A DNA stretch of 64,000 bases from Candidatus Micrarchaeota archaeon (GCA_021811535.1 JAJZOF010000020.1:177077-241076), one strand, 5' to 3'. Positions 8,858-53,016 are shown, numbered from the stretch's first letter. Made by a program: numbers and translations. Notes: generated by a model not told the origin, from the letters alone.

Positions 8858-10402
8858 ATGACTGCCAGGAAGGAAGATGTGAAAGATAAGCACTGGTCCG
8901 ACTTAATCGCAGAAGAAGTCATAAACAGGAAAAAAGCACCTTTTGTGATAAGCGGTGGCATGACCACCAGCGGACCTGCCCATTTTGGAACAGTCTGTGA
9001 GTTCCTCTACCCTTATGTGATAAAAGAGGCAATGAAGGCGAGTGGTGCTGAGGCAGAGTACGTGTTTGTTGGGGATATTTTAGACGCATTTGACAGCGTG
9101 CCGTTTGAGTTAAAAGAATATGGAGATAGGCTTAAGAGTGAGCTTGGAAAACCTCTTGTGCATGTAATTGACCCTCTGGGGTGCCATAAATCTTACGGTG
9201 AACATTATCTGGGTCAGGCAGAGGAGATAATGAAGGCCCTTAAGATAGAAGTAAGGCTGCTTAAGGCAAACGAGATGTATGAAAAAGGGGAGTTTGACAG
9301 GTTTGCAAGGATGTACCTTAGCAGGGAAGATAAGGTTAAGGAGGTTGTCGCTTCAAGCTCAAGGAAGCCAATAGAATCGATGAAGGGCTGGAGCCCTATT
9401 ATGCCGATATGTGAGAAGTGTGGCAAGATAGCGACAACCAGGGTAACATCGCATAGCGCGGATGAATATGAGTATGCATGTGATAGAAAGACGGCCTACA
9501 CGGAAGGGTGCGGCTATGTGGGAAGAAACAGAATAGAGGATCATAAGTATAAGCTGCAGTGGCGCCTGCATTGGCCTTCATGGCAGGTCATTTTTGGTAC
9601 AAGCATAGAGGGAGGCGGGGTTGACCATATGACAAAAGGCGGGAGCTGGGATACTGCATATGCGATACACACTAAAATACTTCAGAATGATCCCCCTGTG
9701 CCTTTTAAGTTTGGTTTTGTACTGATACACGGGCACAAATACTCTAAATCCAAAGGCATAGGAATGAGTGTCGCAGAGGTTCTTAGGCTTATTCCACCAG
9801 AGATGCTCAAGTATGTGCTGATAGAGCCAAATATCCAGCAGAATAAGGATATAGAAGCGGACGGAGAGTCGCTCCTCCTTCTATATAGTGAATTTGAGAG
9901 GCTGTCCATGATGAAGGTTCCGGAGAGCAGGGCTGACGAGAAGAAACTTAAGGCTTACTCTCTTTCAACATCTAAACGGCTGTGGGAAGCCAGATTTGTG
10001 GATGTGCTTCTCAACTTTCAGATATATAGAGACTGGGAAAAAGTTGGTACTATCCTGAAGGATCCGGACGGGGTCAGATATCTCTCCGGTTATATAAATG
10101 AATGGATAAAGCGCGGACATATGCCTGAGAAATATGACTTTTCTGTATCGAAATCCAAGGTAAGCAATAATAAGGAAGCCCTTACTGCATTATCCGAGAG
10201 GCTTGCGGAGAATATGAGTGAGGTTGACGTTCATAATCTAATATATTCGGTGGCTAGGGAGAAAGGAGTTGAGCCTAAGGATTTTTTCGCTACATTGTAC
10301 ATGGCACTGATAGGCAAAGAGAGCGGACCGCGGCTTGGAAAGCTAATATGTGCAATTGGTACAGAGAGAACCAGGGAGCTGATTGATTACGCAGTTTCCT
10401 AG
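8858..10402 (+). CDS. lysS: Lysine--tRNA ligase, class I
   Basis: HWSD...SGPAHFG (HIGH-like), CEKCGKI zinc knuckle, KLQWRLHWP, KYSKSKG (KMSKS-like), GPRLG. Confidence 0.95.
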   Translation: MTARKEDVKDKHWSDLIAEEVINRKKAPFVISGGMTTSGPAHFGTVCEFLYPYVIKEAMKASGAEAEYVFVGDILDAFDSVPFELKEYGDRLKSELGKPLVHVIDPLGCHKSYGEHYLGQAEEIMKALKIEVRLLKANEMYEKGEFDRFARMYLSREDKVKEVVASSSRKPIESMKGWSPIMPICEKCGKIATTRVTSHSADEYEYACDRKTAYTEGCGYVGRNRIEDHKYKLQWRLHWPSWQVIFGTSIEGGGVDHMTKGGSWDTAYAIHTKILQNDPPVPFKFGFVLIHGHKYSKSKGIGMSVAEVLRLIPPEMLKYVLIEPNIQQNKDIEADGESLLLLYSEFERLSMMKVPESRADEKKLKAYSLSTSKRLWEARFVDVLLNFQIYRDWEKVGTILKDPDGVRYLSGYINEWIKRGHMPEKYDFSVSKSKVSNNKEALTALSERLAENMSEVDVHNLIYSVAREKGVEPKDFFATLYMALIGKESGPRLGKLICAIGTERTRELIDYAVS

Positions 10403-13533: not shown

Positions 13534-13608
13534 AGCGAGGTAGGGTAGCCTGGAGTGCCCGCCGGGCTCATAACCCGGAGATCGGTGGTTCAAATCCACC
13601 CCTCGCTA
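13534..13608 (+). tRNA. Initiator tRNA-Met(CAU)
   Basis: A1-U72 pair, three G-C pairs in the anticodon stem (CCGGG-CTCATAA-CCCGG), GTTCAAATC T-loop. Confidence 0.95.
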
Positions 13609-32815: not shown

Positions 32816-32937
32816 TGGCGGGGGCGAGATTTGAACACGCGACCTCTAGATATCTTAGCAATCACAGCAAGTTGCTCATCACTCAAAAATGCTTTGCATA
32901 TGAGTCTAGCGCTCTAACCAGGCTGAGCTACCCCGCC
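32816..32937 (-). tRNA. Elongator tRNA-Met(CAU) with 47-nt intron at 37/38 (32852-32898)
   Basis: Reverse complement GGCGGGGTAGCTCAG...CTAGA-CTCATA[intron]A-TCTAG...GTTCAAATC...CCCCGCCA; relaxed BHB. Confidence 0.9.
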
Positions 32938-44074: not shown

Positions 44075-44752
44075 ATGGAAAACGAGAAAAGGACAGCGCC
44101 CGCAATAAAATACATAGGCGGCTATCTCGCCACAAAAAAGCTAAAGGGGTCGTCAGGGGATCGGAAGGAGGAAGTCATCGAGAATGGCGTCGTGTACCGC
44201 CTATGGAACCCATATAACAGCAAGCTTTCTGCGGCAATAATATCCGGACTTAAAAATATGCACATAAGGGAAGGAAGCAAAGTCCTCTATCTCGGTGCAG
44301 CTAATGGAACAACCTGCAGCCATATAAGCGATATAATAGGGCCTGAGGGTGTAATATACTGCGTTGAGATATCCGAAAGGAGCATGAGGGACTTGTTGCA
44401 GGTGTGTGAGACCAGGCCTAATATGATACCAATACTATCAGATGCCAGAAACACAGATTCATACGCCGCAGAGCTAAGCGGGATAGACATAATATATCAA
44501 GATGTCTCGGCAAGGGACCAGGCAGAGATACTCCTTGCCAATAAAGAGTTCCTTAAACCAGGCGGATATGCTTATGTGGCAATAAAATCACAGAGCATAG
44601 ACGTCTCAAAAGACCCAAGAGACATATACAAGGAATTCATTAGCAAGGTCTCAAAGGAGATGGAGCTGATCGAGACAATAGACATTAACAGATACGACAA
44701 GATGCACCTATTTGTTATTTTTAGAAAACCTATAAAAAGCCCAAATAAGTAA
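44075..44752 (+). CDS. flpA: Fibrillarin-like rRNA/tRNA 2'-O-methyltransferase
   Basis: YRLWNPYNSKL, VLYLGAANGTT.SH.SD, IKSQSID. Confidence 0.95.
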   Translation: MENEKRTAPAIKYIGGYLATKKLKGSSGDRKEEVIENGVVYRLWNPYNSKLSAAIISGLKNMHIREGSKVLYLGAANGTTCSHISDIIGPEGVIYCVEISERSMRDLLQVCETRPNMIPILSDARNTDSYAAELSGIDIIYQDVSARDQAEILLANKEFLKPGGYAYVAIKSQSIDVSKDPRDIYKEFISKVSKEMELIETIDINRYDKMHLFVIFRKPIKSPNK

Positions 44753-47499: not shown

Positions 47500-48918
47500 C
47501 TACCCCTTAACTACCCCTATGGGAACGTTTCTCGAGACCAGCGAGGCAAGTCCTGCTCCAGAAACTACCCCTACAACATCATCTATATCCTTGTAGACCC
47601 ACTCTGCCTCTTCACTTACCAACTTCCTGCTCTTGATCCTCAGTTCTATACCTTTCTGCTCCATCGATTCGAAAGTCCTGCTCTGCGGTATCTCGCGCAA
47701 GGCCCTGTGCCTTGACATTACCCTTCCTGCTCCATGGCACGCAGATCCGAAAGTTTCATCCAGTGCACCTTCCGCACCGCATAGTATGTAACTGGCGGTA
47801 CCCATGCTGCCTGGTATAAGAACAGGCTGCCCGAAAGAGATATAGGATTTAGGGACGTCTTTTGAACCCTTAGGAAGCGAGCGTGTCGCGCCCTTCCTGT
47901 GTACATACAATTTCTTCCTGGAACCTCCTACCTTGTGCTCTTCAAGTTTCACTATGTTGTGTGCAACATCGTATAACACCTGCATGCCCATCTCATCTGC
48001 GCCCTTCCCAAAAACCTTCTCAAATGATCTCCTAACCGAGTCTGTAATCAGCTGCCTGTTAGAGAATGCAAAATTGACTGCGCACTTCATTGCCTTGATG
48101 TAACTCTCTGCTTCCTTGCTTCCTACATAGGCATAGCTTAACTCGGGGTCTTCAAGGGCAATCCCCTTCCTACTGCGGTATTCTGCGAGTTCCATAAGGT
48201 AATCTGTACATATCTGATGCCCAAACCCACGTGAGCCTGTATGTACCATAACAACCACCTGATCCCTGAAAAGGCCGAAGGCCTCTGCTGTGCGTTCATC
48301 AAATAGCTGCTCAACTTTCTGCAGCTCAAGGAAATGGTTGCCTGCCCCTAGCGTACCAATCTGGTTAAGCCCCCTCTTTTTTGCAAAGCTGCTAACCGCG
48401 CCAAAATCTGCACCCTCCATAAATCCCCCTTCTTCTATGAATTTCGGATCGGAATCAAACCCGTATCCCTTCTCTATGAGGTAACCTATCCCTTCCTCGC
48501 TGACTCTCTTTAGATCGGCTTCCCCAAATCCTATATTATTCTTGCTGCCAACACCGCTTGGAACATTGGTGAACAACGAATCAAGAAGGCGGCCAATAGA
48601 CCCTTTTATTTCAGAGTGCCTGAATGATGTAAGTATCACCCGTACTCCGCAGTTTATATCATACCCAACCGCACCAGGCGATATTATCCCATCATCAGCA
48701 TCGAATGCCGCGACGCCTCCGACAGGGAACCCGTAACCTTCATGGCCATCCGGCATGACAATTACATCCTCAACAAGGCCGGGCAGGTGTGACGCATTCA
48801 ATGCCTGCTTGAGCGTCTCGTCCCCTTTCATTATATCCATCATGCGACTATTCGAATACACCTTAACCCGCGAAGAATCTATCCTAAACCTGAATTCATC
48901 AAGCTTCTTTACAATCAT
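47500..48918 (-). CDS. rtcB: tRNA-splicing ligase RtcB
   Basis: PDGHEGYGFPVG, DINCG, GNHFLE, HRKGAT, HGAGR. Confidence 0.96.
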   Translation of the reverse strand: MIVKKLDEFRFRIDSSRVKVYSNSRMMDIMKGDETLKQALNASHLPGLVEDVIVMPDGHEGYGFPVGGVAAFDADDGIISPGAVGYDINCGVRVILTSFRHSEIKGSIGRLLDSLFTNVPSGVGSKNNIGFGEADLKRVSEEGIGYLIEKGYGFDSDPKFIEEGGFMEGADFGAVSSFAKKRGLNQIGTLGAGNHFLELQKVEQLFDERTAEAFGLFRDQVVVMVHTGSRGFGHQICTDYLMELAEYRSRKGIALEDPELSYAYVGSKEAESYIKAMKCAVNFAFSNRQLITDSVRRSFEKVFGKGADEMGMQVLYDVAHNIVKLEEHKVGGSRKKLYVHRKGATRSLPKGSKDVPKSYISFGQPVLIPGSMGTASYILCGAEGALDETFGSACHGAGRVMSRHRALREIPQSRTFESMEQKGIELRIKSRKLVSEEAEWVYKDIDDVVGVVSGAGLASLVSRNVPIGVVKG

Positions 48919-49151: not shown

Positions 49152-49248
49152 GCAGGGATGGCGGAGCCAGGTCAAACGCGGCAGACTCAAGATCTGTTGA
49201 CTTAGGTCTGCGGGAGTTCAATAACAAGAACAAATCTCCCTCCCTGCA
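49152..49248 (+). tRNA. tRNA-Leu(CAA) with 12-nt non-canonical T-loop intron (58/59; 49222-49233)
   Basis: GCAGGGA/TCCCTGC acceptor stem, GCAGA-CTCAAGA-TCTGT, long variable arm, GGGAGTTCAA[TAACAAGAACAA]ATCTCCC. Confidence 0.9.
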
Positions 49249-52850: not shown

Positions 52851-52862
52851 GGCAACATCTCA

Positions 52863-52950
52863 TGGGCCCGGAGAGATTTGAACTCTCGACCTACGGCTTT
52901 CTTAATTCCTATATAAGACCGTCGCTCTGACCAGGCTGAGCTACGAGCCC
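52863..52950 (-). tRNA. tRNA-Ile(UAU) with 13-nt intron at 37/38 (52899-52911)
   Basis: Reverse complement GGGCTCGTAGCTCAG...ACGGT-CTTATA[TAGGAATTAAGAA]A-GCCGT...GTTCAAATC...CGGGCCCA; CTTA/TAAG central splice helix. Confidence 0.9.
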
Positions 52951-53016
52951 AAGTATTAAATATCACTTACGCAAGCAAAATATAAATACTGGCATAAACT
53001 TTTAAAAGGCTTGCAT

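Follow-up and report, generated by a model that had tools for sequence, protein, structure and literature searches.

What is a 47-nucleotide (nt) intron doing in a tRNA gene whose neighbours make do with far shorter ones? The gene is the elongator tRNA-Met(CAU) of Candidatus Micrarchaeota archaeon, and the window, meaning the whole stretch of DNA that was analysed, comprises 64,000 nt (GCA_021811535.1, JAJZOF010000020.1:177077-241076). The window's other three tRNA introns measure about 12–15 nt, and one of them sits in a T loop. An initial annotation, made from this sequence alone, had pointed out the difference. It had also read the long intron as a minimal, intron-encoded guide, with a single kink-turn (k-turn), for 2'-O-methylation of the wobble base C34 of its own tRNA (Cm34), and had proposed that the k-turn could form only once the intron was excised. 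We find the intron to be exactly of the length and sequence described. Our comparative analysis gives a probability of roughly 70% that the intron module is a one-k-turn C/D-type guide for Cm34 of its own tRNA-Met, probably acting on the precursor. It does not sustain the proposed order of events.

The intron lies between positions 37 and 38 of the tRNA, exon 1 ending in CUAGA-CUCAUA, with A37 at 32899, and exon 2 beginning with AUCUAG. The elements of the module, numbered from i1 to i47 along the intron, are listed in Table 1. On strand reading, all of the k-turn elements originally named are present (AUGA, the GCA/UGC stem, the UGU bulge, and GA followed by UU), and AUGA-GCA and UGC-UGU-GA can be laid out as a k-turn with tandem G.A/A.G pairs, a 3-nt bulge and a canonical stem. 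The claimed match to the anticodon loop also holds at seven of eight positions: A31-A35 are paired, a U.U mismatch follows at U36, and A37 and A38 are paired again. Counting upstream from the 4-nt box, the fifth base is G15 of the intron (32884), which stands opposite C34 (32902), as the D+5 rule (here also N+5) has it.

The 3' part of the intron holds the partners of a bulge-helix-bulge (BHB) splice structure. UUGC (i38-i41) can pair with GCAA of the intron (i2-i5) to form the outer helix, UAAG (i42-i45) pairs with C32-A35 at three of four positions as the central helix, and AU (i46-i47) together with A38 makes up the 3' bulge. C32-A35 can therefore pair with either the guide or the 3'-terminal UAAG, and RNAalifold favours the former. 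In mononucleotide shuffles of the intron, a k-turn-like layout appeared in 14,689 of 200,000, and this layout combined with an in-register guide of at least 5 base pairs (bp) that places C34 at N+5 appeared in 79 of 200,000. Taken as a single sequence, the module is suggestive but weak.

Conservation among aligned relatives settles that the module is not a chance arrangement. When the 122-nt gene was compared by BLAST with 60 genomes (the present one, a second from its genus, and the rest from three families of the order), a full-length match that includes the intron was obtained in 56, at 74–100% identity; the four genomes without an intron-covering match are 84–93% complete. An alignment (A1) was built from 53 distinct sequences of the published genomes, two unpublished genomes of the 60 being omitted. 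UGAGU is invariant in A1 (53/53). Equally constant within the intron are the GA that precedes the hairpin, the G that opens the hairpin, and the terminal AG. On the far side of the hairpin, UGA (T74, G75, A76) is at least 90% conserved, and the terminal NNAG-AA of the intron is kept (A83, G84, A85); the hairpin loop and flanks are variable.

The spacing between guide and box is equally constrained. Each of 57 retrieved sequences could be parsed as UGAGU-NNN-GA, a hairpin of 2–4 bp, N-R-U and GA, a longer alternative stem being taken instead of the homologous hairpin in 3 of them. In all 57, UGAGU and GA are 3 nt apart and the G facing C34 is at N+5. The three bases before GA vary (GAU, AAU, GAC, GGC, GCA, UAU, GAA, UGC, UAC, UAG, GUU, UUU, AAC), and the box region of relatives reads UAAUGA, UGACGA, UUUUGA and the like, with only NNGA kept, which vindicates the earlier choice of a D'-type box. 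Because only this D-type NNGA is kept, the UGAUGA of the present intron is not a conserved box C; we rejected it as such, its first GA not being conserved.

The structure is further supported by covariation. The RNAalifold consensus of A1 pairs exon positions 31–36 with the intron; pairs 31–35 are standard in 53/53 sequences and U36 is paired in 52/53, the exception being this genome. In most of the order the guide duplex is contiguous over 6–7 bp. Double-sided changes were found at 15 pairs of the structure, as compared with 4.5 ± 1.2 in shuffles, none of 500 of which reached 15, and paired cells made up 98.5%, as compared with 36–52% in slid-register controls. The 5' hairpin covaries (pair 40:48 is UA in 41 sequences, AU in 3 and GC in 2; pair 39:51 is AU in 42 and GC in 4), and so does the k-turn stem, whose third pair is AU in 26, CG in 9, UA in 5 and UG in 3. 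On the target side, the fixed anticodon loop leaves no room for covariation within the order. Covariation of the k-turn and a constant distance from UGAGU to the box were what the initial annotation had suggested looking for in the introns of relatives, and both are there. As a separate observation, loci L049, L051, L052 and L053 (genomes G040, G053, G056 and G055) have G37 instead of A37, compensated by a C in the intron hairpin. Two explanations offer themselves: G37 in the mature tRNA-Met of these genomes, or splice sites displaced by one base, which would restore A37.

The module also extends beyond the order. In a phylum set of 400 genomes, all reported as one class, the module pattern matches 243 genomes and a reversed control pattern 2. 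An exon-anchored pattern that does not require the module matches 237, and among about 150 introns listed from that search the module is present in most. Some of these listed introns have consensus boxes, reading UAUGAGU-N-CUGA, a short loop or hairpin, and AUGAUGU or GUGAUGC. Introns without the module occur in families f16 and f32, in one genus of f13, in one genome with a 14-nt intron and in two f11 genomes; three f10 genomes have the module with long hairpins or a mismatch.

A prokaryote-wide scan, with one genome per species and a pattern that excluded A31 and left the base after UGAG free, yielded at least 120 stretches. Those listed number 80, with 78 from DPANN-type archaeal records and 2 from bacterial ones. 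The titles listed include Woesearchaeota, Nanoarchaeota, Aenigmatarchaeota, Nanohaloarchaea, Parvarchaeota, one Micrarchaeota and 'uncultured' archaea, and one of the archaeal records is Nanoarchaeum equitans (AE017199). Across the 78 listed DPANN sequences, exon base 31 and the guide base form G:C in 69, U:A in 5 and a mismatch in 4. Together with A:U in 53/53 sequences of this order, position 31 therefore shows three Watson-Crick pair types across DPANN. K-turn stems of at least 3 bp were parsed in 40/53, 26/28 and 57/73 sequences of three sets, which hold 8, 13 and 46 different stems, respectively, as compared with about 5% of shuffled hairpins; the best split was taken for each sequence and 73 of the 78 DPANN sequences were parsed, which makes this contrast somewhat generous.

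The longer introns of loci L067-L096 and of other families carry an additional segment, GGCRCUC, 3' of the C'-type box. This segment is complementary to exon G22-N28 and, by eye, follows exon base 25 (GAGCGC/GGCGCUC; GAGUGC/GCACUC); it may provide extra pairing that helps the short guide. It was rejected as a second N+5 guide, its distance from CUGA shifting by 0–4 nt as judged by eye. The 3' CUGAG of longer relatives was rejected as a second box D: its GA is not kept (CUGG, CGAG, UAAG), and it is the BHB partner of C32-A35.

What do the lineages without the module have in its place? When five such genomes (two of f11, two of f16, one of f32) were searched for UAUGAGU-NN-UGA, a free-standing canonical C/D small RNA (sRNA) was found in all five. 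Its order is RUGAUGA, a 12–13-nt guide ending in UAUGAGU-N, a D' box (NUGA), a hairpin, a C'-type box, a guide ending in CUUGAGU-N, and CUGA, and its second guide places C34 of tRNA-Leu(CAA) at N+5. Four of the free-standing sRNA loci were searched against Rfam (E up to 1) and gave no match.

Across the 400 genomes, a pattern of C box plus Met guide matched 41, with 19 in reversed-pattern controls, and the matches cluster in families without an intron-pattern match. Enrichment is seen in f11 (12/21), f16 (6/7), f18 (3/4), f15 (2/8), f17 (2/4) and several single-genome families, and numbers are near background in f1 (1/81), f3 (2/94), f9 (3/76), f4 (1/30), f7 (0/9) and f13 (0/17). Inspection of 30 loci, as returned for the 41 matching genomes, revealed 16 with a Leu guide and CUGA downstream, 3 sRNA-like variants, 2 (both in f17) that precede a tRNA-Met 3' half, and 9 that are background-like. 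All 6 matches from module-carrying genomes are background-like. They include C18:149556, the sole match of the present genome, which we rejected as a guide: no hairpin, C' or D follows it. At the two f17 loci (L251 and L252, in G370 and G373), UGAUGA, the Met guide, UUGA and GCC stand directly before the tRNA-Met 3' half, and exon 1 was not found within 75 nt upstream; these loci may represent a very long intron, or a split tRNA gene with a C box-guide-D box leader.

The present genome has a homologue of the free-standing sRNA outside the window, on the (-) strand of contig C8 at about 9438-9492 (L268). Its D guide, GGAUCUUGAGUG, matches tRNA-Leu(CAA) over 10 nt with C34 at N+5, and its D' guide, GUAAAAGAU, is not directed at tRNA-Met. 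A separate sRNA of this genome that would account for Cm34, named at the outset as a finding that would refute an intron guide, was looked for and not found. A relaxed scan (G.U allowed, any NNGA) for a separate Met guide in the genome gave 87 noisy matches, none with C/D architecture, and none of 28 strict RUGAUGA...CUGA candidates exceeded 6 nt of complementarity to the anticodon arm.

The same guide, at the same distance from a D-type box, thus resides either in the intron or in a trans-acting sRNA, and rarely, if ever, in both. This either-or distribution is as expected if the intron module does the job of the D' half of the sRNA, 2'-O-methylation of C34, and we consider it the strongest support for a guide function. 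The free-standing guides also bear on the substrate. In G163 and G135 they match the precursor across the exon-intron junction over 10 and 11 nt, as compared with 7 and 8 nt for the spliced tRNA; judging from this longer match, the precursor appears to be the substrate in this phylum.

The closest published counterpart is the 66-nt intron of elongator tRNA-Met in N. equitans, which is stable and abundant by RNA-seq (Randau 2012, Genome Biol 13:R63, PMC3491384). It was described as a potential C/D sRNA with a box D, a near-consensus box C (U-to-G at position 30) and a hairpin of six GC pairs (PMC3491384). The 66-nt intron at our N. equitans locus (L129, AE017199) reads GCAUGGGC-UAUGAGC-U-CUGA-CCC GAAA GGG-GAUGA, followed by the six-GC hairpin and UGAGAA, and its CUGA and GAUGA coincide with boxes D and C as given in the available text of PMC3491384. 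The published boxes D (CUGA) and C are, on that text, the two k-turn strands of the module described here. The two introns share the tRNA, the intron position and the order of UAUGAG(C/U), one base, a D-type box, a hairpin and a C-type box. They differ in that the N. equitans intron has 66 nt, a consensus CUGA and the extra six-GC hairpin 3' of the C box, whereas the present one has 47 nt, degenerate boxes and a k-turn almost directly before the splice helix. On sequence grounds, the two intron RNAs are homologous. The available text of PMC3491384 names no target for the N. equitans intron and does not mention pairing with C34, and a full-text search of one literature library found no other paper on a tRNA-Met intron guide.

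Euryarchaeal pre-tRNA-Trp offers a second comparison, as its intron, also at 37/38, guides 2'-O-methylation of its own nucleotide 34 (Nm34) and its guide duplexes compete with the splice structure. This box C/D intron was reportedly described by Clouet d'Orval in 2001. It is a full two-guide C/D RNA, directing Cm34 and 2'-O-methylation of U39 (Um39), and methylation takes place on the precursor (PMC7994747). The Met module, by contrast, has one k-turn and one short guide. The present genome has, outside the window, two tRNA-Trp(CCA) genes with introns of 66–67 nt (C5:29851-29990 (-) and C8:20417-20555 (+)). Their order is xUGA, a hairpin, RUGAUGA, a 12-nt guide (..AUCUGGAA, pairing with U33-A38), xxGA, a loop and AUGAAGU, which looks like a permuted C/D RNA of the arrangement D-hairpin-C-guide-D'-C'. 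Their C34 guide follows the C box, whereas that of the Met module precedes the D-type box. The tRNA-Trp intron genes (loci L266, L267, L269-L296) are kept at full length in 24 of 29 relatives searched.

Free-standing guides for this base are a third point of reference. A free-standing C/D sRNA, sR-tMet, guides Cm34 of elongator tRNA-Met in Haloferax. In Pyrococcus, the tRNA-Met wobble base is served by a C/D sRNA (PMC7994747). Such guides share the target base and the N+5 geometry with the intron module, and those of this phylum share UAUGAGU-N-D'-hairpin-C' as well. They differ in having a 5' box C, a 12–13-nt guide, a tRNA-Leu(CAA) guide and a box D, and in acting in trans.

The evidence for the intron as a Cm34 guide thus consists of its anatomy, conservation and covariation, its homology with the N. 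equitans intron and the reciprocal distribution, all of which are demonstrated in the sequences compared. Of the original proposal of a minimal intron self-guide, the part that has gained good comparative support is the one-k-turn guide for C34; the proposal is not proven, and it is not without precedent, given the N. equitans intron. The kind of element is already known, having been proposed in N. equitans and proven in tRNA-Trp. To this, the present analysis adds an assigned target, evidence from covariation, a wide range across DPANN, the reciprocal distribution and a minimal 47-nt form.

A number of observations weigh against a C34 guide. The intron has only one box pair (D'/C'-type), no second pair being found in it, and the boxes of this genome are degenerate (AUGA; GUGAUUG). 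Its contiguous guide duplex is 5 bp (A31-A35), with 2 more pairs past the U.U mismatch; the tRNA-Leu(CAA) guide of the sRNA in the same genome has a duplex of about 10 bp. The minimum free energy fold pairs A31-A35 with UGAGU, and at -11.1 kcal/mol (z = 0.49) it is no better than shuffles. Among relatives, UGAGU and GA are separated by 4 bases instead of 3 in G240 and G142 (genus g94), G068, G093, G102 and G397 have an A opposite C32, and the base opposite U36 is U in 37 of the 78 listed DPANN sequences. Covariation at position 31 and fixed spacing would fit a purely structural helix, too. As for the machinery, the sole PF01248 match in the assembly, which is 78% complete, is L30e and not L7Ae. 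Finally, no report of Cm34 in any DPANN tRNA-Met turned up in the literature.

The alternative that survives best, although we consider it unlikely, is that the k-turn serves as a structural or protein-binding handle, for L7Ae or another binder, and that UGAGU masks the anticodon or times splicing, with no methylation taking place. The short duplex and single k-turn would suit such a role. So would the position-31 covariation, the fixed spacing and the covarying hairpin, as they could belong to any conserved three-way structure, and competition between the guide and the central BHB helix could in itself be a splicing switch. The N. equitans intron, moreover, is described in the available text of PMC3491384 only as stable and abundant, with no target. 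However, lineages that lack the module hold the same guide, at the same distance from D', in a canonical sRNA that also targets C34 of tRNA-Leu(CAA), and a structural handle would not need to be replaced by a trans methylation guide. The consensus CUGA and RUGAUGA-like boxes of several families also exceed the needs of a generic k-turn.

Considerably less probable is a C/D-type guide that acts in trans after excision on some other target, such as rRNA or another tRNA, the match to its own loop arising merely from the needs of splicing. A complement of C32-A35 is normal in introns at 37/38, where it serves the BHB helix, and the excised N. equitans intron accumulates, according to the available text of PMC3491384. 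In the introns studied here, however, the BHB partner is a separate segment at the 3' end (UAAG, CGAG or UGAG plus 2 bases), so the internal UGAGU is not needed for splicing. The guide base also tracks base 31 of its own tRNA across phyla, and the free-standing counterparts match pre-tRNA-Met over 10–11 nt. Chance resemblance in one AT-rich intron has a negligible probability: although the single fold is no better than shuffles and 7% of these have a k-turn-like layout, the composite motif is as rare as given above, and it is conserved with covariation in hundreds of genomes.

If the module is a guide for C34, as we favour, L7Ae would bind the k-turn and recruit Nop5 and fibrillarin, and fibrillarin would 2'-O-methylate C34 to Cm34. 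Because the guide and the central BHB helix use the same C32-A35, the precursor would have to switch, presumably alternating between a guide-paired and a splice-competent form. The initial annotation had instead confined the k-turn to the excised intron, on the grounds that it shares UUGC with the splice helix. This conclusion is not warranted, as most relatives lack UUGC of the outer splice helix 3' of the k-turn; it is the pairing of the guide with C32-A35 that competes with the BHB structure, whose central helix draws on these four exon bases, too. By analogy with pre-tRNA-Trp, methylation first and splicing second is the most likely order, and action of the excised intron in trans is possible. 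A more elaborate version, to which we would give somewhat less than even odds, holds that a one-k-turn 'half-mer' ribonucleoprotein methylates C34 in cis before splicing, that the guide-paired and splice-competent forms exclude each other and the modification thereby gates splicing, and that this arrangement is ancestral or widespread in DPANN and has been exchanged in both directions with the D' half of the free-standing Met/Leu double guide.

Table 1. Positions of the tRNA-Met gene, its intron module and related genes in the window
Feature	Position	Strand	Basis or remark
Elongator tRNA-Met(CAU) gene, 122 nt including intron	32816..32937	(-)	Rfam tRNA model; ARAGORN with introns allowed
Intron, 47 nt, at 37/38	32852..32898	(-)	Strand reading; Rfam; ARAGORN
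Target stretch A31-A37, exon 1	32899..32905	(-)	C34 = 32902
5' intron hairpin UGC-AAA-GCA, lengthened by A37:U10 (i1-i10)	32889..32898	(-)	
Guide-like segment UUUUGAGUG	32880..32888	(-)	UGAGU (i14-i18) pairs with A35-A31
D'-type box AUGA, non-bulged k-turn strand (i20-i23)	32876..32879	(-)	
k-turn C-stem hairpin GCA-ACU-UGC (i24-i32)	32867..32875	(-)	
C'-type box, bulged strand: bulge UGU (i33-i35, 32864-32866), GA (i36-i37, 32862-32863) and UUG	32859..32866	(-)	
Splice-structure partners UUGC, UAAG, AU	32852..32861	(-)	Strand reading
Initiator tRNA-Met, separate gene	13534-13608		A1-U72; three G-C pairs in anticodon stem
Fibrillarin gene	44126-44722	(+)	PF01269, 231.8 bits; = C18:221202-221798
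RtcB gene	47503-48807		

The identity of the host gene is supported by two programs. The Rfam tRNA model matches it with 55.5 bits and a 49-nt insertion 3' of the anticodon, and ARAGORN, with introns allowed, reports tRNA-Met(CAU) with a 47-nt intron; the gene was missed in the default ARAGORN run. An Rfam search of the region (E up to 10) gave no match except the tRNA model. G1-C72 and an anticodon stem containing A and U (CUAGA/UCUAG) mark the tRNA as an elongator. We rejected an identity as tRNA-Ile2 because AUA is served by a tRNA-Ile(UAU) with an Ile-type acceptor stem in the same window. That gene (52862-52951 (-)), misnamed by ARAGORN, has a 13-nt intron and an acceptor stem that agrees with those of the tRNA-Ile(GAU) genes of relatives, and AUA is apparently decoded without a CAU-anticodon tRNA-Ile2. 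The T-loop intron, of about 12 nt, belongs to the tRNA-Leu(CAA) gene (49152-49248 (+)). The genome holds slightly different duplicates of its tRNA-Trp and tRNA-Glu(CUC) genes on separate small contigs (C4, C5, C8), which may reflect a strain mixture in the assembly.

Genes for fibrillarin and RtcB lie in the window, as first annotated. Nop5 (C18:121566-122234) is about 100 kb from fibrillarin and not adjacent to it. The L30e gene noted above (C15:13186-13458, L066) adjoins S12. G001, a genome from the same genus, has a match of L7Ae strength, as do 9 more of 11 relatives.

If the module does guide Cm34, many DPANN archaea with tiny genomes would keep wobble methylation of tRNA-Met by means of a guide in the intron of that very tRNA, and the presence of a long, conserved tRNA-Met intron beside short neighbouring introns would be explained. 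The N. equitans intron RNA, for which the available text of PMC3491384 names no target, would gain a concrete one. Nature would also have supplied a minimal C/D guide of one k-turn and 5–7 bp, which puts to the test current ideas on how many box pairs and how much pairing a C/D ribonucleoprotein needs. The reciprocal distribution, in turn, clearly illustrates how a guide can relocate in evolution between an intron and a gene of its own.

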